From Barthelona sp. PCE (lineage: Eukaryota): a DNA stretch of 64,000 bases. Each line of letters begins with the position of its first letter. The first letter of the stretch is position 1. Of the stretch, positions 19,314-59,418 are shown piece by piece. Both the position numbers and the translations under genes were made by a program. Where the stretch lies: contig JAUFOR010000008.1 of NCBI GenBank assembly GCA_040285745.1, forward strand, positions 1,364,001 to 1,428,000, written 5' to 3'. A model generated the notes under the pieces. That model made no database searches, was not told where the DNA came from, and saw only the letters and a program-made list of their open reading frames with translations.

Positions 19314-21356
19314 TTACAATTTTGAACGTAATTTACGCATACATAACAGTATAATAACAATACCAAACGCAACTAGTGCAGCAAAATCTCGCCAAATATC
19401 CATGAAACCGAGTCCTCTGGTTGTAATAGAACGACTACAATTTGTAGCATAGTAAGTAGGAATTAAATATGTGAAATATCTAATCCAAGGCAGCAAAATA
19501 TCGACAGAACTGATGATACCACTGAGCAACAAAGCAGGAATAACACTTAAAATAACCAATAAAAAGGATGCAAGTGAATCATTTCCACTAAAAGTAGAGA
19601 TGAAAACGCCTAAAGCAAGTGAAACGATGGACAGAATTATCAAAACAACAAATAGAAGAGGGATAGATCCTTTAACCTCTACATCAAAGATTATAAATGC
19701 CGTCGCAGCTGCGAGGAAAATTTGAACAATAAGCAAAATAATTTGAGGAGAGAAATAACCCAATACTAGGTGGCGTGCCTGGACACCGGCAACGTACATG
19801 CGTTCCAAACAACCATTCTGTCTGTAAGAAATGAAAAGGTTTGCAAGGAAAATTATTGACATAATGTAAACAACAAAGACAAACAGACCTGGTGTGAGGA
19901 AATCTGCCAATGTGTCATCAACAGATGTCATGTACAACCCATTATCGAAAGAAAGAGGGAGTGTAGGGGCTGATTGACCAAAGTTATTAGTAAGAAAGGC
20001 ACTCATTATATCTACAAGCTTTTGACGCAATTCGACAGCCACTGATTGGTCTGCGTAATCAAGACGGATGTCTATTGGGATGTCTAACGAGACATTGGTG
20101 AGGGAAGCACCAAAATCGACCGGTAGGTGGACGATTGCGCTGAGACCAGCTTCTATAACGTTGTCTAACGCCAAGTCCATCGTTGTATACTGTGTGAGGG
20201 AGTACAGTTCCTTCTCCTCCTTCATCAGAGCGGTAAAGCTCGCTGACAAAGCTGAGTCATCAGAATCGACCCAGCCAACTGATACACCGCTAACAGAGCC
20301 TCCCAGGACCGAGTTAAGGATGATCATCATGAAGATTGGCATCATAATTGAAAACATAAGCAAGCGGCGTGATGACACAAGAGTTTTGGCGTGTTTTCTG
20401 AATATACCACTAACAAAGCGAGGTTTACCTCTCTTAAGAGTACTTGCAGTCATTGCAATAACATCAGCATCACCTATGTTAACCTGAGAGTGTCTTTTTT
20501 CATTGACTTCATCATTAACAATTTTTTCAGTAACTTCTAAAGGATATTCATTAATTACTGTTCCATTTTCATCAACTGTATGGACTGCAACCTTCTCCTG
20601 GTGGGTAGCCAGCAGTAAAAATACATCATTCAGATTGTCACACTGATATTTGTCCAAGAGTCGCATAGGATGGTTCTGATCAAGAATGTGGCCTTCGCGC
20701 ATAAAGATAACCTCGTCACCCCGCATGGCGCTCTCAAGGTTGTGATCTGTTTGAATCACAGTGACACCAGACTCCTGAGTGATGAGACGCAGATACTTCA
20801 TTACACGCTCACGAGATACAACATCCAAGCCTGCAAGACATTCGTCCAAAAGGAGGAGCTTTGGCTTGTGTAGAAGAGCGGTTGCAAGAGCTACACGACG
20901 ACGTTGTCCACCTGATAGAGTGTTGAGAACACGATCCATGGATATATCTTCCATACCAAGAAAGGTCATGATCTCCTGGGCCTTACCCTTGACATCTCCT
21001 TCAACTCCGTAAAGGTTGGCAAAAAATAGAACGTTGTCAGCAATAGTTAGTCGATCAAAAACACCACTGTATTGTGGAAGGTACCCAATATCTCGTGTGG
21101 TAACATTAACCTTGAGGGATCCCGTTTTTGGGGCCAGAAGTCCCAAAATCAAGCTGATTAATGTTGTTTTACCAGCACCACTGGGTGCTAAAAGACTAAC
21201 AATCGTTCCCTTTTTAATTTGAAGGTCAATATTCTTTAAAACCTTATGATCACCCGTATATGAGAATGATAGATTGTTAATATCAACAACATATTCCTCT
21301 TCACCGTTATTTACGTCAACAATACAACCATTTGATGTATCAACGACGTCTGCCAT
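19314..21356 (-). CDS. ABC half-transporter, NBD plus ABC-2-type permease (ABCH/ABCG-like architecture)
   Basis: Walker A APSGAGKTT, signature LSGGQ, Walker B LLLLDE. One TM, a large loop, then 5 TMs. Confidence 0.9.
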   Translation of the reverse strand: MADVVDTSNGCIVDVNNGEEEYVVDINNLSFSYTGDHKVLKNIDLQIKKGTIVSLLAPSGAGKTTLISLILGLLAPKTGSLKVNVTTRDIGYLPQYSGVFDRLTIADNVLFFANLYGVEGDVKGKAQEIMTFLGMEDISMDRVLNTLSGGQRRRVALATALLHKPKLLLLDECLAGLDVVSRERVMKYLRLITQESGVTVIQTDHNLESAMRGDEVIFMREGHILDQNHPMRLLDKYQCDNLNDVFLLLATHQEKVAVHTVDENGTVINEYPLEVTEKIVNDEVNEKRHSQVNIGDADVIAMTASTLKRGKPRFVSGIFRKHAKTLVSSRRLLMFSIMMPIFMMIILNSVLGGSVSGVSVGWVDSDDSALSASFTALMKEEKELYSLTQYTTMDLALDNVIEAGLSAIVHLPVDFGASLTNVSLDIPIDIRLDYADQSVAVELRQKLVDIMSAFLTNNFGQSAPTLPLSFDNGLYMTSVDDTLADFLTPGLFVFVVYIMSIIFLANLFISYRQNGCLERMYVAGVQARHLVLGYFSPQIILLIVQIFLAAATAFIIFDVEVKGSIPLLFVVLIILSIVSLALGVFISTFSGNDSLASFLLVILSVIPALLLSGIISSVDILLPWIRYFTYLIPTYYATNCSRSITTRGLGFMDIWRDFAALVAFGIVIILLCMRKLRSKL

Positions 21357-33770: not shown

Positions 33771-35660
33771 ATGAGTCTTGTTATAAAGGGTATGAATATC
33801 ACATATGGTGAAACAACGGTATTAAAAGACATTTTTCTTTTTTGCCCACCTGGGGCAATGCTTCTTGTTCTTGGTGAAAGTGGAGCGGGAAAATCCACGC
33901 TGGTACGCATCATATCTGGAGTGTACGATACTTCCGAGCACAATCCACCAGAGTGCAGGCAGTTCACAATTGGAGATGTCAATATTATCAAAGGAGACCA
34001 ATTAAAGGGTTATATCGGTATTGTCTCACAGAATAACATACTGCATGAGATGGATACAGTACGTGAAGCTGTTGAATTCTCTTACAGAATGCACGGTACC
34101 GATGAAGAGGAAATCACTCCCAAATCCAATATTCTTCTGACTCACTTGGCTTTGAATGACATACAGGCCCGCGCCATAGGGTCTGAAATGTCCACGAGAG
34201 ACCGTATATCTGGAGGAGAGCGAAGGAGAGTAACACTGGCGACAGGTCTCACCAAAGAGTGTGCATTACTTATTTCCGATGAAGCAACATCAGGGCTTGA
34301 TCCATTTTCGGCGCTAAAGGTAATTGCAGCTCTCAAACGCATGACAGAGCTTAGGAAAATACCTTGTCTTGCTGTTTTACATCAACCGACTCCGGAAATG
34401 GTTTCGCTTTTTAGTTACTGTCTGGTCCTAACTCACAGTGAGGTTTCCTTCTTCGGAAGGGTCCCGCGACTGAAACAGAGACTATTAGAGGCCAGTGTTA
34501 CCGTACCTGGCCAAACCAACATAACTGACCTGATTGTTGATATTTTCGACAACAGAAACGATAACAGTATCGATAATGCTCAGAAAAGATCCATTTACGA
34601 TGCATCTGTGCGCTGTTTCAATGAAGAAATGTCCCTTTTTGATGAAACTGAAACAATCTTGCACGAACCTCGTTCATTTAAGGCATCGTTTACCGTACAG
34701 TTCAATAACGTCCTCAAACGCAGCTTTAAGGCTCGTACAAGGTCATCAAACTATATAACGAGCCGCATATTTGGTACTTTGTTTATCGTTATTATTGGAA
34801 TCCTCAGTTTCGTTAATCTCTCACGAGATCAAGAGGCAATTACGTCTATCACAGGTGCTATCTTCTGGATTCTTGCTTCTGCAAGTTTTTCACCTCTTTT
34901 TATGGTTATTTGGACAACAGAGAGTATTAAAGAGCTTTTCAGATGGGAACGATATAATCACATGTACTCTGTGCTTGTGTTTGTTCTGTCCACTTTCTTT
35001 GCAGTGCTTACTTTTGAATTCATTAGTGCATCTTTTGCATTGTGGAGCCAGTATTGGATTTTTAATTTGAGTAATGATTTTGTCGATTTTCTCACTTTCT
35101 GGGCAGCAATTATTATAACTGTGATTGGTTCCAGTGGCATTGGGCTTGTTTCTATTTCGTTATTTGAGGCTAAAATTGCTTCAGTGTTTGGCATTTCGGT
35201 TCAAATCATTTTTATCCTCTACAGTGGGTTCTACTTTCCTTTAGACACAGTTCCTGGCGTGCTACGATGGATAGGCTCTATTTCCTACGTTCGATGGTCA
35301 GTTGAGATAATAATTGTTTCCCAATTTAATGATATGGTTTTTTCCTGCACTGATGATCAAAAACTGCCTAACGGTTCGTGTCCGATCCCTAACGGAGAGG
35401 TATATCTAAGGAACAGAGGTCTTGAGAATTCCAAAATCGGGGAAAACTTCATTTATCTGAGTATCGTCGTAACCGCTTACTGGATAATCTTCTACATAAC
35501 AACGCGTTTATTTCTGAGAAAGATATCCTTATTCCAAAGGCCTATCAAGCGCATTACGTCTGATACACCTTCATCTAGTGTACAAGTCGCAGAACTAACT
35601 GCAAACAGTTTTGAATCCAGTGATGTTATTCAACGAACACCTTTGCTCACAGAAGAATAA
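33771..35660 (+). CDS. ABCG (White-type) half-transporter
   Basis: GESGAGKST, ISGGERRR, DEATSGLD, LHQP, 6-TM ABC2 domain, and a CTDDQKLPNGSCPIPNGE loop. Confidence 0.93.
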   Translation: MSLVIKGMNITYGETTVLKDIFLFCPPGAMLLVLGESGAGKSTLVRIISGVYDTSEHNPPECRQFTIGDVNIIKGDQLKGYIGIVSQNNILHEMDTVREAVEFSYRMHGTDEEEITPKSNILLTHLALNDIQARAIGSEMSTRDRISGGERRRVTLATGLTKECALLISDEATSGLDPFSALKVIAALKRMTELRKIPCLAVLHQPTPEMVSLFSYCLVLTHSEVSFFGRVPRLKQRLLEASVTVPGQTNITDLIVDIFDNRNDNSIDNAQKRSIYDASVRCFNEEMSLFDETETILHEPRSFKASFTVQFNNVLKRSFKARTRSSNYITSRIFGTLFIVIIGILSFVNLSRDQEAITSITGAIFWILASASFSPLFMVIWTTESIKELFRWERYNHMYSVLVFVLSTFFAVLTFEFISASFALWSQYWIFNLSNDFVDFLTFWAAIIITVIGSSGIGLVSISLFEAKIASVFGISVQIIFILYSGFYFPLDTVPGVLRWIGSISYVRWSVEIIIVSQFNDMVFSCTDDQKLPNGSCPIPNGEVYLRNRGLENSKIGENFIYLSIVVTAYWIIFYITTRLFLRKISLFQRPIKRITSDTPSSSVQVAELTANSFESSDVIQRTPLLTEE

Positions 35661-35723: not shown

Positions 35724-38700
35724 TTAGAGAGCAACAGCTTCCTGTTCCATCTCCCGTTGCATAGCCTTACGCTTTGCAACTGCCATGAATAATGTAACAC
35801 GGGACTTAAAGTTAACCGAAGAAGCACCGGGATCAAGATCTAACGCAGAGACGTTTGCACCTTCCTTACGAAGAGCAAACAGTGCGCAACGAAGCATGTG
35901 TTGAGGTAAACAGAACGCAGGCTGGATACAGAGAATGTTGTCGCAGCCAGAGGACATCATTTCGATCGCCTCACTTACAAGAAGCCAACCTTCACCTGCC
36001 TGGAAAGCGACAGAAATCAAATCACGATCAGCTAAGGCCTGGGCCTTGTCACTGATGGAGTGGATCGTGTGACGGAATCGAGCAGGCATGTACTTGCTAC
36101 GAAGACGCTGGACGTACCCGATAACTGTCTTGTAAATGATGGAGTTGCCCCATCCATTAGAAAGGTACTCACGCTTACCGACAGAGTCGTACATGCAATA
36201 AAGGATGAAGTCCATGATACCGGGTGTGAAGACACGTGCTCCCTGAGCCTCAAGCTCACGTACAACGTACATATTCGACATTGGATGATACTTCACCAAA
36301 ATCTCACCAAGGAGACCAACCTCCACTGGTTTCTTGTTTTTATCGATCTTGATCGACTCAAATGAGTGTTCAATGCTCTGCACAACCTCTCTGAAGCTAC
36401 CACCGCTCAAGAAATATTGACATCCCTTATCCAGCGCTTTCTGGCTAACGTGATCAGCAGTTCCCGGTTCCAGTTCGACGGGGCGCATATACTGCTCATA
36501 GAACATGATGATGTCGCCCAGAACAAGAGACTCAAGAGCCTTCTTGGCCATTGAAAGACCGGGTGAGAAACCCGTGTGCTTCTCGATACCCTGCATGGAC
36601 ATCGTTCCAACCGGGATATGGCTGAGACCGAGGGCGGCGAGCGCCTTACGGATGAAGAAGGGGTAGTTGGAGGCACGACAGGGACCACCTGTTTGTGTAG
36701 TGAGGAAAACAACCTTTTTAGGATCGATCTTTCCTTCAGCAACGAGATGGTAGTAGTTCTTGATAAGAGAACCAACAACAATGAGTGTGGGGTAGCAACA
36801 ATCGTTGTGAACGTGTCTCAGAGCAATATCCAAGATCTCATCACGCCACTCAGGAGGAGAGCGAGCAACGAAAACAGGATAACCCTGACCCCTGAACATA
36901 GCGCAGAGGAGGGTGTTGTGCTGCGGTGACAGATCGGGAAGAAGGATAGACCAGCCCTCATCGTACATCTCCTTTGTGTAAAGAAGAGGCATCTTGAACT
37001 CTGACTTGAAAGTCTCGCCATTGTTCGCCTTCTCGTTCTCGAGAGCAGCCATGAGAGATCTGAGACGAATCTTGACAGCTCCGTGGTTCTCAACCTCGTC
37101 AATCTTCAGTTGTGTGTAGATCTTGTGGGGCTCCAGAATGACCTTGATCTGATCCGACGTGACTGCGTCAAGACCGCAACCGAAGGAGACAAGCTGAACG
37201 TACTGGACGTGTGGTGTCTCGAGGGTGCGGTGTGCGGTGACGTATAGCTTGTGGTGGTAGGTCCACTGACTCAGAACATCAGTTTTGATCTCACGATCAT
37301 CTGCCCAGTCGTGATCGACAACACAACAGTCAAGCTCATTAAGAATGTTGGGGATACCGTGGTTGATACCAGCATCAAGGTGGTAAGGACGACCGACAAG
37401 AGCAATGCATGTAAGCCCATTATCGGCAGCGTACTCAACAATAGCCTCATTCTGGTGACGACACTCCAGCTCAAACTGATCTTGGTGCTCAAAAGCGAGG
37501 TTGATTGCATTCTTCAACACAGAACGTGAGAAGCGCTCGAAAATGTCTGGCATAGAATCGCGTAGACGAACTAAAAGACGCTTGCGATCGTGGAGTGGGA
37601 GGTACGGGTTATGGACGACTGTTCCAGGCTCCATGAAGTCCTCAAGACACTTGGTCGCTGCCTCTGGGTAAGAACCGACAATAGGACAATTGTAATGATC
37701 CTGCGATGTGATGCGAGGGTTGTATGGCAGACATGGCAGGAAAATGGCGTCACAGCGTGACTCCAACCACAGGACGTGTGAGTGCAACACCTTGGCGGGG
37801 TAACAGATGGTATCTGAAGGGATAGTTTCACGACCAAGAACGGTGAGACGCTTGCTGCTCATGGGAGACAGTTTGACCTTGAAACCAAGAGAACGCAAGA
37901 GTGCTGACCAGAAGGGGTAATCCTGGTACATGTTCAGACAACGGGGAAGACCAATTGTCATACCTTGTTCAGGCGCCAACTCGGGAACGGGCTGGTTCCT
38001 GAATGTGCGTGCAATCTTCCACGAGTAGATGTTGGGCAGCTTCTCTTTCTTAGCCTTTGTAACTTCGCGGTTCAGCTGAGCAAGTGCAATAGTCTCACCC
38101 TTGGAACATTTGTTACCACTGACGAAACATGCTCCGTTGTTGAACTCCAAAGCAGTCATGAGACACTTGTTGGCACAACCATTACACGTAAGCTTCTGCT
38201 GAGTCCACTCGAGATCAAGAGACTTGATGTCCAGGCCGACGCATGGAACACCGGTCTCGTGCTGCTTCTTCGAGAAGAGCGCGGCACCGATACAGCCCAT
38301 AAGCTCGGGGAAAGGAGCTCGAACGATGTCTCTCTTAAGCTCGATTTCGAGAGCACGGAGAACTGCATTACTTTTGAACGTACCACCTTGCACAACGATT
38401 TTCTCGGGCAAATGTGTAGTTCTAAGCACCTTGTGCAGCAAGTTTTTGACGATGGAGTAAGCAAGACCAGCAGAGATGTCAGGGACACCAAAGCCCTGTT
38501 TCTGAGCGGTCTTAACCATCGACTGCATAAAAACAGTACAGCGGGATCCTAAATCAACGGGAGACTCTGCCTCAAGCGCGATCTTTGCGAATTCAGCAGG
38601 GCCCATACCGACTGATGCGGCAAAGAGTGCCAAGAAGGAACCACAACCGGAGGAGCAAGCCTCGTTGAGTACCAGGTTGGAGAGAGAACCATGCTGGTCC

Positions 38701-39971
38701 AACCACAAACCCTTGACGTCCTGACCACCAATATCGATAACCATTTCAACGCCAGGCAGAATGTGAGCAGCAGCCATCGAGTGACAGACTGTTTCGACCG
38801 CATTGAAGTCCAGACCGAAACACTCACGAAGCATGAACTCACCGTAACCGGTTGAACAACCAGCGGCGAACTCAACATCAGGGAATTTCTCAAAGAATTC
38901 GTTGAGAGCCTGAATGCAAATGTGGATGGGAGATCCCTTATTGTTTTGATAATAATGCCAGACAAGGTCACCTTCACTGTCAATAGCAGCAAGCTTTGTT
39001 GTTGTAGAACCTGCATCAATACCCAAAAAGAGAGGGGGAACGATGCCTTCTGTCTTAACCTCGCCAAAAGCATGATCCTTATTCCATTGCGTTAACTGAG
39101 CTTCTGAAGTGAAAAGCTTAGGTAGGCATGTGACGGGAGATGAATTATCATTCAATAGATCGAGCTTGTTGAAGTCAAAAGCACTAACTTCATAACCGTA
39201 CTCATGAGCAGCTAAAGCAGCGCCCATTGCCACCCAAACATTAGCGTTTTCAGGGACAACACATGTGGGACAATCCTTTAGAGATTCTGTAAATAATTTG
39301 GCAAGAAAATCTAAATAAAAAAGAGGTCCACCTAAAAGCAAAGCGGGTCCTTCGAATTTCTGACCTTGACCTAACCCTGATATGGTTTGATCAACAACGG
39401 CCTTGAAAATAGAGGCTGCAATGTCCTCCTTCTTTGCTCCTTGATTGAGAAGAGCTTGGATATCTGTTTTCGCAAAAACTCCACAACGAGATGCAATTGA
39501 ATACATAACTTCATGATTGTGCGCGAGCTGGTTGATTCCTGTGACATCAACGTCAAGCAGCTTGGCACATTGCTCCAAGAAAGCACCTGTTCCACCAGCG
39601 CAAATATTGTTCATACGATTATCCATGTTTCCGTTTTCTGACCAACGGAGAGCTTTAACGTCCTCACCTCCGATCTCAATAGCGACACGTGTCTCGGGAT
39701 AGTACTTCTTTGAAGCTGATGCAGCGCAAATAACTTCCTGAATATAAATCAAATCAAATGCTTCAGAAATAAACATTCCTGAACTTCCAGTAGTGATGAT
39801 TGCTGCTTCTCGACCCTCGAGAAACTCTTCCATCTCTTTAAGGATGTCCAATGCTGTTTCCTTAACATGTGAATTGTGCTTACGGTAAGTACTGAATTGA
39901 ATCTCACCTTCAGCGTCTAAAATGACGGCCTTAACTGTGGTAGAACCCGAATCTAACCCAATAAGAAACAT
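35724..39971 (-). CDS. Fused 2-hydroxyacyl-CoA dehydratase activator (2x ASKHA BadF/BadG/BcrA/BcrD) plus DUF2229/dehydratase-like domains, 1415 aa
   Basis: IGLDSGSTTVK / EIGGEDVK / NNICAGGTG / SRCGVF, then LGIDAGSTTTK / DIGGQDVK / NEACSSGCG / SRCTVF, then IGLPRCL, DTICYP, YNCP, GRPYH, SFGCG, NDCCYP, GGPCRASNY and GEGWLL. Confidence 0.95.
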   Translation of the reverse strand: MFLIGLDSGSTTVKAVILDAEGEIQFSTYRKHNSHVKETALDILKEMEEFLEGREAAIITTGSSGMFISEAFDLIYIQEVICAASASKKYYPETRVAIEIGGEDVKALRWSENGNMDNRMNNICAGGTGAFLEQCAKLLDVDVTGINQLAHNHEVMYSIASRCGVFAKTDIQALLNQGAKKEDIAASIFKAVVDQTISGLGQGQKFEGPALLLGGPLFYLDFLAKLFTESLKDCPTCVVPENANVWVAMGAALAAHEYGYEVSAFDFNKLDLLNDNSSPVTCLPKLFTSEAQLTQWNKDHAFGEVKTEGIVPPLFLGIDAGSTTTKLAAIDSEGDLVWHYYQNNKGSPIHICIQALNEFFEKFPDVEFAAGCSTGYGEFMLRECFGLDFNAVETVCHSMAAAHILPGVEMVIDIGGQDVKGLWLDQHGSLSNLVLNEACSSGCGSFLALFAASVGMGPAEFAKIALEAESPVDLGSRCTVFMQSMVKTAQKQGFGVPDISAGLAYSIVKNLLHKVLRTTHLPEKIVVQGGTFKSNAVLRALEIELKRDIVRAPFPELMGCIGAALFSKKQHETGVPCVGLDIKSLDLEWTQQKLTCNGCANKCLMTALEFNNGACFVSGNKCSKGETIALAQLNREVTKAKKEKLPNIYSWKIARTFRNQPVPELAPEQGMTIGLPRCLNMYQDYPFWSALLRSLGFKVKLSPMSSKRLTVLGRETIPSDTICYPAKVLHSHVLWLESRCDAIFLPCLPYNPRITSQDHYNCPIVGSYPEAATKCLEDFMEPGTVVHNPYLPLHDRKRLLVRLRDSMPDIFERFSRSVLKNAINLAFEHQDQFELECRHQNEAIVEYAADNGLTCIALVGRPYHLDAGINHGIPNILNELDCCVVDHDWADDREIKTDVLSQWTYHHKLYVTAHRTLETPHVQYVQLVSFGCGLDAVTSDQIKVILEPHKIYTQLKIDEVENHGAVKIRLRSLMAALENEKANNGETFKSEFKMPLLYTKEMYDEGWSILLPDLSPQHNTLLCAMFRGQGYPVFVARSPPEWRDEILDIALRHVHNDCCYPTLIVVGSLIKNYYHLVAEGKIDPKKVVFLTTQTGGPCRASNYPFFIRKALAALGLSHIPVGTMSMQGIEKHTGFSPGLSMAKKALESLVLGDIIMFYEQYMRPVELEPGTADHVSQKALDKGCQYFLSGGSFREVVQSIEHSFESIKIDKNKKPVEVGLLGEILVKYHPMSNMYVVRELEAQGARVFTPGIMDFILYCMYDSVGKREYLSNGWGNSIIYKTVIGYVQRLRSKYMPARFRHTIHSISDKAQALADRDLISVAFQAGEGWLLVSEAIEMMSSGCDNILCIQPAFCLPQHMLRCALFALRKEGANVSALDLDPGASSVNFKSRVTLFMAVAKRKAMQREMEQEAVAL

Positions 39972-40285
39972 TGTAATGAAAGAGGTAAATAAAGATTCTA
40001 GGAGATGTTATTCGTATTTAAAAACTGTGCTCTTCGGTTTTGCGATGCAAGTAAGTGAAGACAACCTTTAAAAATACTGAAACAGAAGCTATTGTTTGCC
40101 ACGATATAGAATCTTTTTAGTAATTCGTGGCACTTGGATTTGCCACTCAACATGCTATTTATGCATATTTATGTTCTTCCTTTCTAAAAGAAATCTCCCA
40201 ATTCTTTTTCACAACCTGCATTCAACTTTTCTTTATTTTAAACAGTTTTAATACAAACACATTTACATTTAAGCGAAGTTTTGGA

Positions 40286-42472
40286 TCAACGAAACGTTGA
40301 AGAACCATCAAAGACCCTAATATTTGCTGAACTATTCGAAACCATAAGCTTTATCCTATTCAGCTTTCTTTTCTTTCGTTTATCAAAATTCCTAGCTGCT
40401 ATATAGAAATAAATGAGTATACAGATCGAAGTGATAATGGAAATACCTGTAATTGAAGCAAAAAAAGCATGATAACCAAACAGCTCATTACAAATCGCAT
40501 CATAATGATTATATATAAAATCATCAACCATATACTGCGATTCTAGGCCAAAATATTCTAAATTATCATCAATCCATGTGCTAAAGATGTCAATACTATT
40601 GTTTAATACATCTAAAATGGGTAATTGCAAAGGGAGGTTATTCAACTCTCTATTCAAGAAGTCAATGAGATCAGGCTTTGCCTCTTCCAATGCCGGTACA
40701 CCATACATATTAATGAAATTGTATCTGTTATTAATAATATCATTCTTTGAGCAGTTAAGATAATGGAGATCAAACTCCCACTCAATAGGCACAAGAGAAA
40801 GAATATGACTGTTATCGTAAACAAACCTGCATGACTGTGTAGAGTATGCTGACAACACCCATCCTGAAGTGAAAACTACAACAAGCAGCAAAAGTACTGT
40901 ATGAGTTAGACACATTGCAATTGGCTTGAGTCTAGAGTTATTACACGTTGCTCCTATAAATAGAAGGCAGCTCATGAGCACACAGAAAAGTAATAAAAAC
41001 CAATACATAAGATTCAAACTGATATAAAACGGAAAGTTCAAATATCGAAACACGTATGACTCTTTATCTTGAATTGTTGCTGTAACTTCTTTTAAAACTT
41101 CATGCACATTCACATATACAGATTTTGCCACTGTATCTGACGTCCGTACCTGGTTTTGTAATATAGAAGATATCTTCGTATCGTCAAATACTTCAACAGC
41201 CTTTAGTACTGTGTTTCCCACCGTTGAAATAGCTTCTGAAAAAGCTGAAAGCGTTTCTATTGCTGGATTCCAAGTTGAAATACTGGAACACCACTGAACA
41301 AACCGCTGATCCTCAGAAGAATTGCTAAAAGCAGCAGTTAAGTCACTAAATGCGGTATCTATATCTTCTGTGCGCTGCGAAATACATGCTGAATCACAGC
41401 CAGTACAAAAAATACTGTCAAAATTCGAAATAGCACCTTGGATAACAGAAAGACCAAGATCTGGGGTATCAATATCATAAATGGATGTCTTAAAGAAGTC
41501 CAGTGCTGATGAAAATGCAGTTGCGTTGATATCAAGCACTGCAGGACAAAGACTAATGGCTACGTTTTCCAAACTCCCTGTGGTGTTATACCAAGCTGTG
41601 ATCTCCTTACTAATGTTCTGAACCATTGCAAAATTAACTTCGTCACATATGCTGCCGTCCTCCAATATGGATAATAAAGTCACTACTGTATCAGAAGGAG
41701 GAGGAAAATTTTCTAAACTAAATTCCGAAGCTATCATTTGAACAACCTCTGCCACTGTATTCATCTGTGACAGTGTGATGTTCATTGATGAATTGTTTTC
41801 AATAAATTGAAAAAAATCTTCAAATACATCTTTAAGCAAATTTAGTGCATTTATAGACCTACTCAAATCCGCAAACTTGAAAGGAGGTGGGCTGCGTAGT
41901 GTTATACATTTGCTGCTACCGTGTAAAACAATATAGAGGATAAAGACAATAAAAATAACAAAGAATCCGAAAAAAACACTTCTGTGGCACTTTGAAGGAT
42001 CTGGTCTATGTACAATGGTTAAAGGGTTCCTCAAACACTTTATCAGCCACGTTGTGAGTACCCAAATCACTGAAAATACTGCGAACAAAGCTGGTATTAG
42101 TAAAAATAATCGTAAATTGAAAATCTCCATTCCAACTCCTGAACCAGTTAAAAATTGAACATACTCCAAAAAGTTGGGTTGCCAGATGCTACGTTCAGTG
42201 TTATCAATAGAATAGTCTTTAAAATTAAACACATCTGTGAATGTTTTGAAAATTGATGTATTAGTAACTGGCAATAACAGTTCATCGATTTTTTCGGTTA
42301 TATTAAAGATATCTGTGTCAACAGAAATCCATTGATTCGATCGATTTGACAATGGAGATAATAAATCCTCAAAAACGCTTTCAATCTCAATTTCAACAAC
42401 AGAAGCTTGTGTTAAAATTTGGCAAAAGCCCAGACAGAGCAAAAATACCTGCCATGAACATGATTTGAACAT
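40286..42472 (-). CDS. 5-TM membrane glycoprotein with prominin-like topology
   Basis: Signal peptide, TM pair, large loop, TM pair, second Cys-containing loop, final TM, basic tail. The family call is tentative. Confidence 0.6.
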   Translation of the reverse strand: MFKSCSWQVFLLCLGFCQILTQASVVEIEIESVFEDLLSPLSNRSNQWISVDTDIFNITEKIDELLLPVTNTSIFKTFTDVFNFKDYSIDNTERSIWQPNFLEYVQFLTGSGVGMEIFNLRLFLLIPALFAVFSVIWVLTTWLIKCLRNPLTIVHRPDPSKCHRSVFFGFFVIFIVFILYIVLHGSSKCITLRSPPPFKFADLSRSINALNLLKDVFEDFFQFIENNSSMNITLSQMNTVAEVVQMIASEFSLENFPPPSDTVVTLLSILEDGSICDEVNFAMVQNISKEITAWYNTTGSLENVAISLCPAVLDINATAFSSALDFFKTSIYDIDTPDLGLSVIQGAISNFDSIFCTGCDSACISQRTEDIDTAFSDLTAAFSNSSEDQRFVQWCSSISTWNPAIETLSAFSEAISTVGNTVLKAVEVFDDTKISSILQNQVRTSDTVAKSVYVNVHEVLKEVTATIQDKESYVFRYLNFPFYISLNLMYWFLLLFCVLMSCLLFIGATCNNSRLKPIAMCLTHTVLLLLVVVFTSGWVLSAYSTQSCRFVYDNSHILSLVPIEWEFDLHYLNCSKNDIINNRYNFINMYGVPALEEAKPDLIDFLNRELNNLPLQLPILDVLNNSIDIFSTWIDDNLEYFGLESQYMVDDFIYNHYDAICNELFGYHAFFASITGISIITSICILIYFYIAARNFDKRKKRKLNRIKLMVSNSSANIRVFDGSSTFR

Positions 42473-42657: not shown

Positions 42658-44784
42658 TTACTCACAATCATTCAAAACTATTCTCCCTCGGTGGTATTCA
42701 TCATATCCAGGCATGTGATACTGCACCACATCAGCCTCTGCAATAAATGAAGGCATATGATACATTTCAACCATCGGACATTCACTCTCAGGGTCTTCTT
42801 CCACGTTGAGAGTGATCAATGACATCATCTTTGTCTCAAAATTATAATCAAATTGCTGATGAATGTTATTAGGGAAACGTTGTTCATCCACAAGATCAGT
42901 TGGAATATCAAGCACATGATTAGATCTAAAACGAGTTTTCAGGTAACCATCCACGACATTCGCCTTAATAACACCATCAACCACTCTTATCCAAGAATCA
43001 CCAACAAAGGAAACGAAAGATTCAGACAGTGTAATAGGCTCAAAGAAAATTTCAGATTCCCAATCCAAACAATATAAATGATGAACAGTCCCACCATCAG
43101 CATCTAAACTCTCAACATTAAACAATTGGCTTTTTGAATCTTCCAAAAAGTACTTAGCTGGAGTAACCCTTATTAAATCTGTAATGTCATACATCATTAC
43201 ATGCTTTTGAATTCGTACATCACCCTCACTCTCATCTAAAAACAAGAAAAAATGTACTGAGCAATCAGTAACAATCACAGCTGTTTGGTTGAAAGAGCTC
43301 CCATCTGCATGGACCAAAAAATCTTCAGGCGGCAATTCCAAAATCTTTGTTTTTCCTAAATATATCTTTGGACCATTAAAGTTATCAACAGCAACGGAGA
43401 CAACCTGCCCCGCTGCAATACCAAAGTACCCATCTCCATCATATAACTCAGTGATGATTGCTGTTGTTGAATTCTCCTCCCAATGTATCTTCAATATTTT
43501 CGGTTCAAAATCTTTCATCACTTCACATATTAAGGAAAATTCTCCGACAGGATTATAACATATTTCAGAATATTTGCATTCATTATGTGCTGCAAAGAAC
43601 ATACCTACATCCCTAACTACAATCATTCGCTTTTCTTTCAAAAAAAAGAAACAATGAGTGCAGTTGTCGTAGTTTCTAGAGTGAAGAACACCGTCAAAAT
43701 AAACTTTCTCCGGAAAAATGCTGGTTAAAAACAATATTTCATTGCTAGACTCTCTCCATTTGAGAACTCCATATGCCCCCGTCACATCACAACCATATAT
43801 AGTGCAATTCTCATAATTGAAGTCATTTAACGATAAATCTATATATTTCCGCTCAGTTATGATTGAGGAAGAACACCCTAATTGTCCTGAAGTGCTTCGC
43901 TGACCATTTTCATCAATCATTACTGCAATACAATTGGTCTCATGAACAAATAATAAGTACATGGAACTCTCTGACAGATGAAAGATAAAAAAATCACTAA
44001 AGTGCCCCTTCAAATAGTGTTTAAGAGATGGAAACCTCTGAAGCAAGTCAACTTGATGACACATGGAATCAACCAACACCAATTTTTCAAAGTTTTCATT
44101 ACCTTTCAAAGCAAAACATGCACAATTTGCATTTCTACAAATGATAGTATCGTGATAATAATAATCCAATGGTGCTATAAACGGTTCATGATTTTCATCA
44201 ATGTCATCTGGTGAAAAATTGTAATGAAACAGCATAGGGTTACCCATCTCATATCTTACCAACACGATATAATCAGAGTTAGATGGATAATACTCATAAT
44301 TACCTAAATATCTGTGCGACATTGATAACATACTTAAAAGATAACACTTTACGACTTCTTCGTCTGGAAAACCAACAGTGAAGAATAGATGGTTATCATC
44401 CAAGGGTTCAAAACCGGTTGATAAATAGCAGTAATCATCATTTAAAATGAAATCAAACTCAAATTCAATGTCAAATTCTGATGAAATATCAACACTATCG
44501 AAGCTGTCAAACAGTTGAATATGAAGACCAATGAGTGTATTCTCATCATCCCTCCTCTGTTCAAAGACAAAATACTTGGTACCATTTCTTGTCTTCTTCT
44601 TAGACCAATTGAAAACTGTATGACTTCCATCAATAATATAACCACAAAAATTCCCATCTATCAGTCTCGTAAGCTCGATATCCTGACAGGATGTCAATCT
44701 TACGCTTTCCCCCTTAAAATACAGTTTTCCCTCTGAAAATGACTTTAAAATCAGGTCATCTTCAAATTTTCGCACCCTTGGCAT
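42658..44784 (-). CDS. Hypothetical protein (708 aa), acidic, aromatic/beta-rich
   Basis: Long ORF with TTTCA just upstream. No motif recognised. Confidence 0.75.
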   Translation of the reverse strand: MPRVRKFEDDLILKSFSEGKLYFKGESVRLTSCQDIELTRLIDGNFCGYIIDGSHTVFNWSKKKTRNGTKYFVFEQRRDDENTLIGLHIQLFDSFDSVDISSEFDIEFEFDFILNDDYCYLSTGFEPLDDNHLFFTVGFPDEEVVKCYLLSMLSMSHRYLGNYEYYPSNSDYIVLVRYEMGNPMLFHYNFSPDDIDENHEPFIAPLDYYYHDTIICRNANCACFALKGNENFEKLVLVDSMCHQVDLLQRFPSLKHYLKGHFSDFFIFHLSESSMYLLFVHETNCIAVMIDENGQRSTSGQLGCSSSIITERKYIDLSLNDFNYENCTIYGCDVTGAYGVLKWRESSNEILFLTSIFPEKVYFDGVLHSRNYDNCTHCFFFLKEKRMIVVRDVGMFFAAHNECKYSEICYNPVGEFSLICEVMKDFEPKILKIHWEENSTTAIITELYDGDGYFGIAAGQVVSVAVDNFNGPKIYLGKTKILELPPEDFLVHADGSSFNQTAVIVTDCSVHFFLFLDESEGDVRIQKHVMMYDITDLIRVTPAKYFLEDSKSQLFNVESLDADGGTVHHLYCLDWESEIFFEPITLSESFVSFVGDSWIRVVDGVIKANVVDGYLKTRFRSNHVLDIPTDLVDEQRFPNNIHQQFDYNFETKMMSLITLNVEEDPESECPMVEMYHMPSFIAEADVVQYHMPGYDEYHRGRIVLNDCE

Positions 44785-44850: not shown

Positions 44851-47475
44851 TTATTCGAATGCTAAGTTAGCGTATTCAGGATTCTGCTCATTGGAAGCAA
44901 GCATCTCACTTACAACATCCACGAATGAACAGATCTCAACCTCAACCTGTTCCCTGGTCAAGAGGTTCTTGATGCTAATCGTTCCGTTATCCAGCTCTGT
45001 CTCACCAACAATGATGACAACATCACAGCCCATCTTCGTCGCTGTTGTCATGTCGTCTTTTGTTTTTGAGTTCTTGACCTGTGTGAATTCCGAAGCTATA
45101 CCGGCTTCCCAGAGAAGACCTGTCACCCACATGCGTTTCATGAGGAAGTCATATTTGGTAGACTTGCCCGCCTGTGTGACATACACACGTGTCTGCTTTG
45201 TGCGCAACTTCATATTGTGCTCGATAAGTGTAAAGACACGTTCAATACCGACTGAAAATCCAACAGAGGGGATCTCCTTTGTGCCAAACATACCGATTAA
45301 CCCGTCGTATCGACCACCGCCACCGATGGAGCCAACCAGACCAGTTGCGGATACTGCCTCAAAGATGGGACCAGTGTAGTATGAAAGACCACGGGCAAGG
45401 GACATATCTAAGCGGATGTTTGCGGTTGGGCGCATGCAGATGATGTATTGCATCAGCAATTCAAGTTCGTCCACGGCCTTTCGACCAGCCTCATCGTCGT
45501 AGAGGCGTCCCTCAGCGAGCTCGATTTCCTTCAGTTGGGAAATGACACTCTCGTGTGTACCAGTGACGGCAGCGAAACGTTCAAGCCAAGAACAAACTTC
45601 CTCGGTCAAACCTCGCTCATTGATGAGCTCATCTTTGACTGATTCCCATGGCTCCTTATCGAGCTTGTCGATGGAAGCGCAGACTGCTGCAAACTTCGAC
45701 GAGGGGACACCACAAAGTTCCACTGCCCTTTGGAGCACCATTCTGTGAGAAACCTTAATCCAAAACTCACCAATGGGAAGGTCCGACAACACTTCGTCTG
45801 CCATCACCAAAATCTCTGCATCAGGAACCATAGGAGCGTACTTGCCAGCAATGTCGAGATCGCACTGATAAAATTCACGGTAACGGCCTTTCGACATGTT
45901 GGGCTGATCGCGACGGTACACCTTTGCGATGTGGTACCGCTTGATACGTGATGTGCTAGTAAGGGCGCAATAACGGGCAAAGGGAACCGTCAGGTCATAA
46001 CGGAGTGAACATAACTCACCGCCTTGATCCTCAAGGTTATAAATGAGTTTAGCGCCCTCTTCACCGTACTTGCCCAGTAAGGTCTTACGGAGCTCGAAGA
46101 CTGGGGTATCAATCGGGACAGCACCGTGCTTCTCAAAGGTCTCAGCGATCCTCTTCATTGCGTAGTTACGAATACTCATCTGCTCGGGGCCAAAGTCCCT
46201 GGTTCCCTTAGGGATCTTGGGCCTCTTAGCCTGTTGATCGTTGTCAAACACTGTTTGCAAATCACTGGAAAGAGCTACAAGATCACGGAAGGTAACAGTT
46301 CCTTTCTCAATGATTTTCTTCAACGAACACATGAAGCGCTCGACGTGGACCGATATTTGCCACAACCTCTTCTCCTTCTGGGGCTTACTCAATGACTGCT
46401 CAATTTTTGCTGCAAGATCATCCTTACCCTCCTCGCGAAGGGTCGCGACACGCTGGATCGTTGCTGTTCTCTTCTTCTCGATAGCAATGGCCTGCTTCTC
46501 TGCGAGACCCGACATAATCTTATCGAAATCATTGTAAGCAAATGAAAGCAGCTCGAAGAAAAAGGCATACAATTCTTCAGAACCAAAATCTGTGGAACCT
46601 AAGAATTCTTCGCCTGTCATCAAACGAGAGAGCTCAAACAGAGGAATGGCGTCTAGCATGAACACGTCTGATGTGGCAAATGCTGAGGTGCCTGTGCAAC
46701 TGTTAACATCAATACGCAGCCCAGGTCTGATAGAGGCTAACTTGCTGCGCAACACACCAATGTGCTCCAGGAGACCTGAAAGCCCGTCGATGCGATTCTT
46801 GCTCTTTGGAGTAACCTGCTTGGTTGAATCCAAAGCACACGAGATGTTGCCCAGTGTGGTTGCCATCGAAGCTCGCGTCATGCCGGGGAAGGCGTTATAG
46901 TCGAGGACGCCACTGTTTACGGCCTCCTTGTCCATCTTATACGCAACAAGACCCTCCATAACGCTGACCATAGAAGCTAACACACTGTATTTAACCAATA
47001 ACTGCGCTTTTGCTATGTATCCTGCATCAATTACAAGACGAACGTCCTTGCCGTCGAACAAAACACCTTCCGGGAGCATCTCGTCGATAGAACACATGTT
47101 TCCTTCTCTGTCAACAACAAAAGAACCCGGGCAAGGGAAATCGCACTGAATTTCATTGTTGTTCATGAAGTATGCAGGAACAAAGCCGCTGTTGTACAAA
47201 TCAACGCAGAATTCGATCAGTGTAAGGCGAGGGAGCTTGTTGTGTTGAACAGCAGCACCCAATCCCAAAAGAAATGCAGCTTTGAGTGTTTCAATGTTAA
47301 AAAGTCCAGCTAACACTGTTTCCTCGGATGAGCAGTGCTTTTTGTATGCAAAACGCGGTTTCACAGTTGTGTTGGTAAGTGATTCTAATAAAGAAATATC
47401 CAAAATGATGTTGGCATTCTCGACGACCGCCTGGAACAGGTCTTCGATGATGCGTGTATTCTTATCCAAAAGCAT
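44851..47475 (-). CDS. HARS: Cytosolic histidyl-tRNA synthetase with ~415-aa N-terminal extension
   Basis: PKGTRDF, LRYDLTVPFAR, KVYRRD, GRYREFYQCD, LARGLSYYTG, GGGRYD, GIER, and an anticodon-binding domain. Confidence 0.96.
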   Translation of the reverse strand: MLLDKNTRIIEDLFQAVVENANIILDISLLESLTNTTVKPRFAYKKHCSSEETVLAGLFNIETLKAAFLLGLGAAVQHNKLPRLTLIEFCVDLYNSGFVPAYFMNNNEIQCDFPCPGSFVVDREGNMCSIDEMLPEGVLFDGKDVRLVIDAGYIAKAQLLVKYSVLASMVSVMEGLVAYKMDKEAVNSGVLDYNAFPGMTRASMATTLGNISCALDSTKQVTPKSKNRIDGLSGLLEHIGVLRSKLASIRPGLRIDVNSCTGTSAFATSDVFMLDAIPLFELSRLMTGEEFLGSTDFGSEELYAFFFELLSFAYNDFDKIMSGLAEKQAIAIEKKRTATIQRVATLREEGKDDLAAKIEQSLSKPQKEKRLWQISVHVERFMCSLKKIIEKGTVTFRDLVALSSDLQTVFDNDQQAKRPKIPKGTRDFGPEQMSIRNYAMKRIAETFEKHGAVPIDTPVFELRKTLLGKYGEEGAKLIYNLEDQGGELCSLRYDLTVPFARYCALTSTSRIKRYHIAKVYRRDQPNMSKGRYREFYQCDLDIAGKYAPMVPDAEILVMADEVLSDLPIGEFWIKVSHRMVLQRAVELCGVPSSKFAAVCASIDKLDKEPWESVKDELINERGLTEEVCSWLERFAAVTGTHESVISQLKEIELAEGRLYDDEAGRKAVDELELLMQYIICMRPTANIRLDMSLARGLSYYTGPIFEAVSATGLVGSIGGGGRYDGLIGMFGTKEIPSVGFSVGIERVFTLIEHNMKLRTKQTRVYVTQAGKSTKYDFLMKRMWVTGLLWEAGIASEFTQVKNSKTKDDMTTATKMGCDVVIIVGETELDNGTISIKNLLTREQVEVEICSFVDVVSEMLASNEQNPEYANLAFE

Positions 47476-47543
47476 GGAGTTGAAAAAGGAAGAAATGTAG
47501 ATAATAGCCCCGTTATTCTGTTTTCAACGTATTCGGGCATAAT

Positions 47544-53940: not shown

Positions 53941-54217
53941 AATAGCGTTGAAAGGGTAGTAAATGGACTTGTGGACAATGATTTGATATTCATACTGTGG
54001 ATGCTCTTATAGCACACAATATCCCACATTTTATCCCTTTTCAAAGATAGTTAATGACAGATGTTTTACAACTGAAGTGCACAGCCAGGGTTTCAACTGC
54101 TTCTTATATATGGTCTTAAACACTGGAATAAACATAATTATGGGGGAAAATGACTATATATCACCACAATGTTTGAAAAGAAATGACAACACCATTAAGA
54201 CAATTCTACCCTATTTC

Positions 54218-58410: not shown

Positions 58411-59418
58411 CTAGCAAACCAGCCTCTTCATTTCCAATCGGTCCTCTTCGTCATCGACGCTGCTAATCTTGATATCCATCGTGAGCTCACGGTGGTTGTT
58501 CTCAGGCTGATCAAAGTAGAAACTCAACTCCATTAGGTCCCTCATATGGTAGTGATCGTCGAACAGAACCATCGTCTGCTTCCAGTGAGTGTGGGGAGAG
58601 TAGGGGCTTGTACATAGCTCTACAATCTCACCGCCCTTATGTCTCTGTGTAAAGATACACTTGAACCACATACAGAGCCCATTGACCATTGTGTTCTCCT
58701 TCAGATCGATGGTTGTCTTGAATACACGTCTGTATATATCCTCCAACGACTTGACATCGTACAGGCTCAAATCAAAGATGGTTCCGTAATCACTGGCAAT
58801 GTCGTCCTTGTGCACTTCGTCTAGAATCGTCTCATATATCGAGGATCCCTTAAAGATGGAGAAGTCGAACCCATGAACGTTGTCCCAGAAGTTAACCATG
58901 TGGTTGTAGTCAATGTAATTGGCGAAATGTGCATGCAACTGAATTCGATCAGGCAACAAAATTCCATCATCTTTTAACAAGTTATCACGAGCAATTAACA
59001 CTGATTCCAGCATGTTCTCGAAGAGCAGGCAGTATCCCATCCACTCACTGATAATAATATCAACTCGATCACCGCCAACCATTTCCAATGTTACATCTTC
59101 GACTTTTGCCTTGATCACTGTGATTCTATCACTGTAATTGTTGAGTGCAACAATTGCCTCAGTGTTTTTGTACATTGAAGTTGGTTCTACAGCAAAAACA
59201 TGTTTTGCTCCTGCTTTGGCAGCAAATAAACTCAGGATCCCCGTTCCTGCACCCACGTCGAGCACTACTTTGTCTCTAAAGATATCGCAATTATGTGTGA
59301 TTGCATGTTCATACGCAATAGTTCTATAATAATCGTTCAGCATATCGTAGTGAATAGAATGGTGCTCGTAACTCTGAAAGTAGACCTTCTCACTATCAAG
59401 ATTTCCCTCTAAACTCAT
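58411..59418 (-). CDS. Type I protein arginine methyltransferase (PRMT1-like)
   Basis: YFQSY, VLDVGAGTGILS, double-E loop SEWMGYCLLFE, THWKQT. Confidence 0.94.
   Translation of the reverse strand: MSLEGNLDSEKVYFQSYEHHSIHYDMLNDYYRTIAYEHAITHNCDIFRDKVVLDVGAGTGILSLFAAKAGAKHVFAVEPTSMYKNTEAIVALNNYSDRITVIKAKVEDVTLEMVGGDRVDIIISEWMGYCLLFENMLESVLIARDNLLKDDGILLPDRIQLHAHFANYIDYNHMVNFWDNVHGFDFSIFKGSSIYETILDEVHKDDIASDYGTIFDLSLYDVKSLEDIYRRVFKTTIDLKENTMVNGLCMWFKCIFTQRHKGGEIVELCTSPYSPHTHWKQTMVLFDDHYHMRDLMELSFYFDQPENNHRELTMDIKISSVDDEEDRLEMKRLVC

Follow-up and report, generated by a model that had tools for sequence, protein, structure and literature searches.

Plasmalogens arise by two unrelated routes, one O2-dependent (animals, some protists and myxobacteria) and one reductive (anaerobic bacteria); the primary paper on PlsA is reportedly that of Jackson et al. 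2021. In Clostridium perfringens, plsA-plsR is described as reducing the sn-1 ester of diacyl phospholipids and thereby turning them into plasmalogens (PMC13159169, PMC12838417, PMC9702350, PMC8788747, PMC10191378). The domain order of PlsA is given as Act1, Act2, Red1, Red2, that is, two activation domains and two reduction/dehydration domains; single-gene plsA ranges from 4,248 to 4,920 bp, and the versions of Enterococcus faecalis K-4 (4,248 bp), Lactococcus cremoris (4,311 bp) and Bifidobacterium longum led to plasmalogens in E. coli, the characterised enzymes being 41-55% identical to C. perfringens PlsA/PlsR (PMC12838417). The layout termed BBD+H is that of Ger and modified PlsA, and Ger comprises two PF01869 domains and one PF09989 domain followed by small PF09989 and PF06050 pieces (PMC13159169). 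The holders of this family are, in section 10 of the same paper, bacteria and archaea alone (PMC13159169). In this study, a 1415-codon gene that we assign to the fused PlsA/PlsR(Ger) family was analysed in a eukaryote, Barthelona sp. PCE. The gene occupies positions 35724..39971 of the minus strand, according to the list of open reading frames (ORFs) and the translation, in a 64,000-nucleotide stretch of contig JAUFOR010000008.1 (positions 1,364,001 to 1,428,000; hereafter the window), and its TAA stop codon lies at 35724..35726. Its product is probably a lipid ester reductase of the PlsA/Ger type, and O2-independent synthesis of plasmalogens is its most likely activity.

This assignment is based on the layout of the protein, because two PF01869 domains, PF09989 and a second module resembling the 2-hydroxyacyl-CoA dehydratases (HAD), fused within about 1400 residues, constitute the arrangement of PlsA/PlsR and Ger. 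Moreover, residues 1-1402 of the protist protein were collinear with residues 1-1410 of the L. cremoris protein at 40% identity. Since the characterised enzymes share 41-55% with C. perfringens PlsA/PlsR, this value falls at the margin of the variation within the family. The Lactococcus anchor was reached through a search with a Streptococcaceae homologue and belongs to a cluster (at least 90% identity) of L. lactis/L. cremoris proteins of 1433-1436 residues; the 4,311 bp of L. cremoris plsA correspond to 1436 codons. A first-pass annotation, made from the letters of the window, had proposed a single intronless frame without an N-terminal extension. Both points hold, as the ORF list and translation gave one uninterrupted frame of 1415 codons, collinear with the Lactococcus protein to residue 1402, and the first residues of the protist protein, the Lactococcus protein and the bacterial homologues aligned with one another. 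The ATP-binding DSGSTT motif begins at residue 7. No room is left for a targeting presequence, because this motif starts so early and residue 1 matches the bacterial residue 1, and a cytosolic location of the protein is a reasonable inference.

The first-pass annotation was correct in its anatomy, a pair of activators followed by a Cys linker and a pair of dehydratase-like modules. Pfam detected two stretches of PF01869 (BcrAD_BadFG, E 5.2e-66), and NCBIfam likewise detected two stretches of TIGR00241 ('acyl-CoA dehydratase activase'). Activase domain 1 (residues 1-258; 39198..39971, minus strand, as are all features of the gene) is an HgdC-like ASKHA ATPase with C124 and C163, delimited by PF01869, TIGR00241 and alignment to 4EHT/1HUX. 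Activase domain 2 (residues 314-570; 38262..39032) carries C439, C443 and C478, with the best PF01869 stretch at residues 316-566 and matches to HadI, HgdC and MbdQ entries of the PDB at residues 316-574. The two ATPase domains were the only parts to match solved structures by sequence (HadI 4EHT, HgdC 1HUX, MbdQ/MbdP and DCCP-R), with E values of 3e-30 for HadI and 1e-27 for HgdC in the PDB sequence search. When aligned with HgdC (PDB 1HUX), the predicted cluster cysteines C124 and C163 coincide with Cys127 and Cys166, which are reportedly the [4Fe-4S] ligands of HgdC. In the family alignment, C439 and C478 are the invariant columns of activase domain 2 that correspond to C124 and C163, and C443 is invariant too. 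The linker C596-x2-C599-x3-C603...C622 (38106..38186) follows the CxxCxxxC...C pattern first noticed in the sequence and was invariant in all 25 rows of one family alignment (A1) and all 48 rows of another (A2). It probably forms an additional Fe-S site, placed between the activase part and the reductase part.

The two C-terminal modules were characterized mainly by their predicted structures. Reductase/dehydratase module 1 (residues ~639-984; 37020..38057) contains DUF2229 (PF09989) at residues 672-888 (E 1e-61; score 208.8 bits, cut-off 29.4) together with the conserved C723, C762 and C932, and module 2 (residues 1001-1415; 35727..36971) contains the conserved C1059, C1098, C1348 and C1354. 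Residues 890-1415 gave no solved-structure match by phmmer or profile. With hmmscan at E <= 10, residues 581-1415 matched PF09989 alone, and no PF06050 (HGD-D) was found, a result that leaves distant similarity possible, as the HMMER filters drop most weak matches. Two pieces of the protein were folded with AlphaFold2 from family alignments, residues 581-1415 (pLDDT 87.1, pTM 0.85) and residues 1001-1415 (pLDDT 89.2, pTM 0.90). The top PDB matches of the models in Foldseek, with probability 1.00, were HadB/HadC, double-cubane cluster protein (DCCP), BzdNO and MbdON. VIA-align placed module 1 on HadBC, DCCP, BzdNO and MbdON with Z 10.9-15.2 and an rmsd of 4.0-4.5 A over 271-286 residues; module 2 (residues ~1001-1409), taken from the separately folded piece, matched these entries too, at Z 10.2-13.8, and the first unrelated entry below them scored 6.8. 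These models and the conserved Cys columns of the family bear out the earlier recognition of two dehydratase-like modules, and both modules are predicted to have the fold shared by dehydratases, benzoyl-CoA reductases (BCR) and double-cubane cluster proteins. Module 2 is equivalent to the separate PlsR of the split bacterial forms, because in 13 of the 80 best bacterial loci the long frame ends just before it.

If the assignment is right, the tandem HgdC-like ATPase domains would form a pseudo-dimer, with a [4Fe-4S] cluster held by C124/C163 and C439/C478. This cluster would be reduced by a low-potential donor such as ferredoxin or flavodoxin, and ATP hydrolysis would push the electron through the Cys-rich linker into both HAD/BCR-like modules. 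In a diacyl glycerophospholipid, the carbonyl of the sn-1 acyl ester would then undergo two one-electron reductions, protonation and dehydration, giving a 1-alk-1'-enyl (vinyl ether) bond. The resulting plasmalogen would require neither O2 nor the peroxisomal dihydroxyacetone phosphate (DHAP) route. We infer Fe-S binding, the electron donor, the lipid substrate and the vinyl-ether product, as well as the cytosolic location and the expression of the gene.

The protein had been described in the first-pass annotation as an ATP-driven radical dehydratase, which named the superfamily rightly, since ATP-driven electron transfer of the BCR/HAD type is what the domains indicate, but assigned it the role of a 2-hydroxyacyl-CoA dehydratase, which was not supported. 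A self-activating enzyme of that type, serving radical amino-acid or hydroxy-acid fermentation, is very improbable here. The HadI and HgdC matches of the activase domains and the HadBC fold of both C-terminal modules (Z up to 15.2) would suit it, and so would the database name of the bacterial homologues. The NCBI names of the Lactococcus, Enterococcus and Streptococcus homologues are '2-hydroxyacyl-CoA dehydratase' or 'activase-related', and this naming explains the earlier dehydratase inference. However, the dehydratase name is also borne by plasmalogen synthase family proteins of Lactococcus and Enterococcus, so that it reflects domain content only. Furthermore, the fold match spans the whole BCR/HAD/DCCP superfamily at 9-12% identity, and the absence of a PF06050 match also speaks against a dehydratase. 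Companion genes that the earlier proposal implied, for CoA-transferase, 2-hydroxyacid dehydrogenase and acyl-CoA dehydrogenase/electron-transfer flavoprotein, were absent from the 32 scanned ORFs of the 64-kb window, a finding to be read with the unclustered nature of eukaryotic pathways. The proposed undescribed radical fermentation or reduction pathway was not borne out, in view of the PlsA/Ger layout, the collinearity with the L. cremoris protein, the missing PF06050 and the lack of a CoA-pathway gene in the window. An enzyme that modifies lipids is the likelier reading, ahead of a new radical fermentation.

The relatives of the protein are bacterial. A protein search returned 7,926 homologues among 7,989 scored candidates, and the best 119 non-self matches were proteins of 1405-1466 residues with 40-42% identity over 99-100% of the query, every named one being bacterial. 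In a survey with one genome per prokaryotic species, 2 of 64 parts were scanned and 703 relatives were confirmed, from which a family of about 24,000 stretches among prokaryotic genome contigs can be extrapolated. The best 80 loci, at 33-43% identity and mostly from Clostridia, were analysed further. All 119 listed non-self matches and all of these 80 loci were bacterial or metagenomic, which agrees with the bacterial type and lateral origin proposed at first. Matches in the ESM Atlas were solely clusters with the two Pfam families PF01869 and PF09989, and a DUF2229 match was present in the control genomes of T. maritima and L. lactis. A fused frame of at least 1380 residues was found in 62 of the 80 loci. 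In 13 others (L002, L003, L017, L036, L046, L049, L051, L060, L068, L069, L072, L074 and L079) the gene was split, the long frame ending at 978-1022 residues and the match continuing in a second frame; this is the plsA-plsR split described for C. perfringens. In the FastTree tree, the split forms, together with L070, whose longest frame is placed differently, made up one well-supported clade (99*) of Oscillospiraceae, Lachnospiraceae, Erysipelotrichaceae and Sphaerochaetaceae. Besides its fused gene, Clostridium algoriphilum carries two adjacent DUF2229 frames of 344 and 371 residues (L083 and L085; contig 11, 87.8-89.0 kb), and these shorter frames are a split paralogous system of unassigned function.

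The residues expected to be essential are well preserved. All 16 Cys columns that are at least 90% conserved in 24 bacterial rows are Cys in the protist protein. At columns at least 95% conserved in the 62 fused bacterial homologues, the protist protein kept 297 of 353 (84.1%), against a bacterial median of 98.9%; in the same 353-column test, the rows from other phyla reached 84.4% (L022) and 73.8% (L066), and a Bacillota row from Dialister (L063) reached 90.1%. At columns invariant in the 24 closest matches it kept 325 of 431, with bacterial leave-one-out values of 95.4-100%. The protist protein thus appears clearly diverged, without decay.

Several observations count against a PlsA-like function and should be set beside this retention. 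Identity to bacterial proteins was no higher than 33-43%, and 106 of the 431 otherwise invariant columns were changed, one changed cluster being the C-terminal motif region at residues 1357-1363. The end branch of the protist protein was long, 1.54 against a median of 0.27 in the FastTree tree (99 rows) and 3.4 against 0.55 in the LG+C20 tree (36 rows, with L066 left out). The trees were built from the best-scoring 80 loci and 19 named proteins, frames shorter than 900 residues being omitted from the FastTree tree. The protein appears to lie outside both sampled bacterial clades, so that its tie to the characterised enzymes rests on alignment and architecture. The L. cremoris anchor is a same-species proxy for the tested gene of ATCC BAA-493, and the comparison with the proteins of C. 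perfringens (Q8XL48/Q8XL47), E. faecalis (Q835P9), T. maritima (Tmari_0479) and D. alkenivorans (SHJ90043) was by description only. In addition, some bacteria with a homologue are said to make no plasmalogens (PMC12838417, PMC13159169).

The position of the protein in the trees was also considered. FastTree joined it to L066, a metagenome-assembled genome of Bacteroidales; this is the other long branch, and the join was flagged by the tree tool as a probable artefact and was set aside. Under LG+C20, the protist protein attached at a point between the clades of split and of fused forms, outside every supported set. No bacterial sister was found in either tree, the best identity being 43%. The comparison with bacterial homologues that had been suggested at first agreed with the bacterial type of the protein, but gave no supported sister and indicated no donor. 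Either the transfer is old or later evolution was fast.

A diverged member of the family, recruited after transfer to reduce another ester, a carbonyl or a small molecule, as double-cubane cluster proteins do, would account for the very long branch without a sister and for the changed invariant columns. A fold as close to DCCP as to HadBC and BzdNO, and the split DUF2229 paralogues beside a fused gene in one Clostridium genome, point the same way. The entries 6ENO, 7YYL and 7YZM of DCCP, the [8Fe-9S] double-cubane protein, were matched with Z 12.6-14.0, a likeness measured at the level of the fold. However, the four-part architecture, the length and all 16 conserved cysteines were retained, and conservation was no lower than in bacterial members of other phyla. 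Moreover, the tested members of the fused architecture are described as acting, without exception, on sn-1 acyl esters of glycerolipids (PMC12838417, PMC13159169). A new substrate is accordingly an unlikely explanation.

Within lipid ester reduction, a Ger-type glycerol ester reductase would begin with the same chemistry and yield a saturated sn-1 alkyl ether lipid instead of a plasmalogen. The BBD core is also present in Ger of T. maritima and D. alkenivorans, whose 1-alkyl glycerol monoethers appeared in E. coli only under anoxia (PMC13159169). The accessible text of two papers gives no sequence rule separating PlsA from Ger (PMC13159169, PMC12838417), and the protist protein stood outside the Lactococcus/Enterococcus clade in both trees. 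Against this, the closest sequences come from Bacillota, where plasmalogens are the known product (PMC9702350), and the protist protein did not group with L022, the sole row labelled as Deltaproteobacteria. PF06050 pieces, which are described for Ger, went undetected by Pfam, and plasmalogens have been reported in anaerobic protozoa (PMC9702350, PMC11225845). A saturated product thus seems rather doubtful, and a plasmalogen synthase remains the favoured assignment.

The genomic setting of the gene is eukaryotic, as had been noted at first. In a Pfam scan of 32 ORFs of the window, the neighbours included Sec24, two ABC half-transporters, histidyl-tRNA synthetase (HisRS), VPS13, tubulin-tyrosine ligase (TTL) and Pumilio (PUF), and further Roadblock, PCIF1, PRMT, a HeH/LEM protein and DUF846. 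The end of an ABCG-type gene lies 63 bp from the stop of the 1415-codon gene, and the next upstream ORF lies 314 bp away, in a contig of 2,170,504 bp. A TTTCA element, taken as a candidate initiator of host type, is located at 39977..39981 (minus strand), 5 nt before the ATG. TTTCA occurred within 40 nt upstream of 11 of the 21 ATG-start ORFs of the window, against 2 of 21 downstream of stops; it is present in 8.9% of random 40-mers, and shuffles (n=2000) gave a mean of 2.99 and a maximum of 9. This enrichment identifies TTTCA as a genuine host feature, in agreement with the first-pass annotation, and its role as a transcription start is a candidate one, suggested by position. The element is pyrimidine-rich and stands about 6-39 nt before the start codons of these 11 ORFs, for example at 47485..47489 and 53949..53953; similar short promoters of the initiator type occur in some anaerobic protists, and the element would imply very short 5' untranslated regions. 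As to codon use, the earlier wording of a strong preference for C/G-ending codons was overstated, since the G+C content at third codon positions (GC3) was 0.50, but the composition is host-like (window range 0.30-0.55) and near that of Sec24, HisRS, PCIF1 and PRMT (0.53-0.55).

The intact frame, the eukaryotic neighbours, TTTCA and the host-like GC3 bear out the view that the gene is domesticated. Bacterial contamination joined into the assembly, or a recent insertion that is dead or unexpressed, is a highly improbable explanation. Eukaryotic ORFs stand at short distances on either side within a contig of more than two megabases, the upstream element and codon composition are those of the host, and the frame of 1415 codons is unbroken and retains every key residue; moreover, no bacterium exceeds 43% identity, which rules out a recent contaminant. 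The gene is best explained as one that was taken from bacteria and now resides in the nuclear genome of a deep-branching protist with few introns.

Further features of the window were observed. Its ABC half-transporters (ABC_tran and ABC2_membrane) lie at 33771..35660 (plus strand) and 19314..21356 (minus strand), and the former is convergent with the PlsA-like gene, with the 63 bp between their stops. ABCG-type pumps often move lipids, and the adjacency may be due to chance. Upstream, two adjacent ORFs of about 700 residues (40286..42472 and 42658..44784, both minus strand; GC 0.35-0.36) belong to no Pfam family; when compared, they showed no mutual similarity and are not paralogues of each other. 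The histidyl-tRNA synthetase (44851..47475, minus strand) has an N-terminal extension of about 420 residues without a Pfam match, its catalytic domain beginning at residue 424. The best non-self match of a PRMT1-like protein (58411..59418, minus strand) in a collection of 5.8 billion proteins was 43%, with matches scattered across animals, fungi and plants, so that the organism has no near relation in this collection. Rfam gave no match anywhere in the window.

Plasmalogens are described in anaerobic ciliates, and DHAP was found in 1976 not to be the precursor in two anaerobic protozoa (PMC9702350, PMC11225845). The O2-dependent plasmalogen pathway is reported absent from Metamonada and Archamoebae in a paper whose accessible text nowhere mentions 'plsA' (PMC13012113). 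No report of a eukaryotic PlsA or of a protist hydroxyglutaryl-CoA dehydratase/activase was found in the literature searched, subscription papers, supplements and genome annotations aside, so that 'unreported' is provisional. Nor do the papers cited here name any eukaryotic gene for the reductive route. That the gene encodes a working PlsA-type enzyme, and would hence be the first eukaryotic gene identified for making plasmalogens or ether lipids without O2, is a plausible prospect, though slightly less than even. If active, it could be the gene behind the DHAP-independent plasmalogen synthesis of anaerobic protozoa. Lineages without the aerobic PEDS1 pathway could then regain plasmalogens by adopting the reductive bacterial route, and a membrane-lipid trait would join the functions that anaerobic eukaryotes gained by gene transfer. 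With a host-adapted PlsA-type gene in a protist, the old question of plasmalogen origin becomes directly testable. The names '2-hydroxyacyl-CoA dehydratase' and 'activase-related' call for caution in annotation, as they imply a fermentation chemistry and not the reduction of lipid esters described for the fused architecture.

Compared with known systems, the protist protein shares homologous ATPase domains (E 1e-27 to 3e-30) with HadBC/HadI and HgdAB/HgdC and has the HadB/HadC fold in both modules (Z 13.6-15.2). Unlike those enzymes, whose activator is a separate single-domain homodimer and whose substrates are acyl-CoA thioesters, its activases are fused in tandem to the catalytic modules, which are only 9-12% identical to theirs and lack a PF06050 match. 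DCCP/DCCP-R (6ENO, 7YYL) and the class I benzoyl-CoA reductases BzdNOPQ/MbdONPQ have in common with it the fold of the superfamily (Z 12.0-14.0) and the use of ATP to drive electron transfer at low potential, but consist of separate subunits and act on different substrates. Ger ('modified PlsA'; T. maritima Tmari_0479 and D. alkenivorans SHJ90043) shares the BBD core and performs an O2-sensitive reduction of the sn-1 ester (PMC13159169); in a comparison by description only, it differs in yielding saturated alkyl ethers and in its interspersed PF06050 pieces, none of which was detected in the protist protein. PlsA/PlsR, that is, C. perfringens CPE1194/CPE1195 and the single-gene PlsA of Enterococcus faecalis, Lactococcus cremoris and Bifidobacterium longum, differs in that the protist gene belongs to the nuclear genome of a eukaryote and is preceded by an upstream element of host type, and that its protein is a very long branch without a bacterial sister, with about 16% of near-invariant positions changed and a predicted product. 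The protist protein resembles PlsA/PlsR in having two activase domains and then two reduction/dehydration modules, in retaining all conserved cysteines, in being collinear at 40% with the L. cremoris protein, and in the length of its ORF, which equals the 4,248 bp of plsA of E. faecalis K-4.

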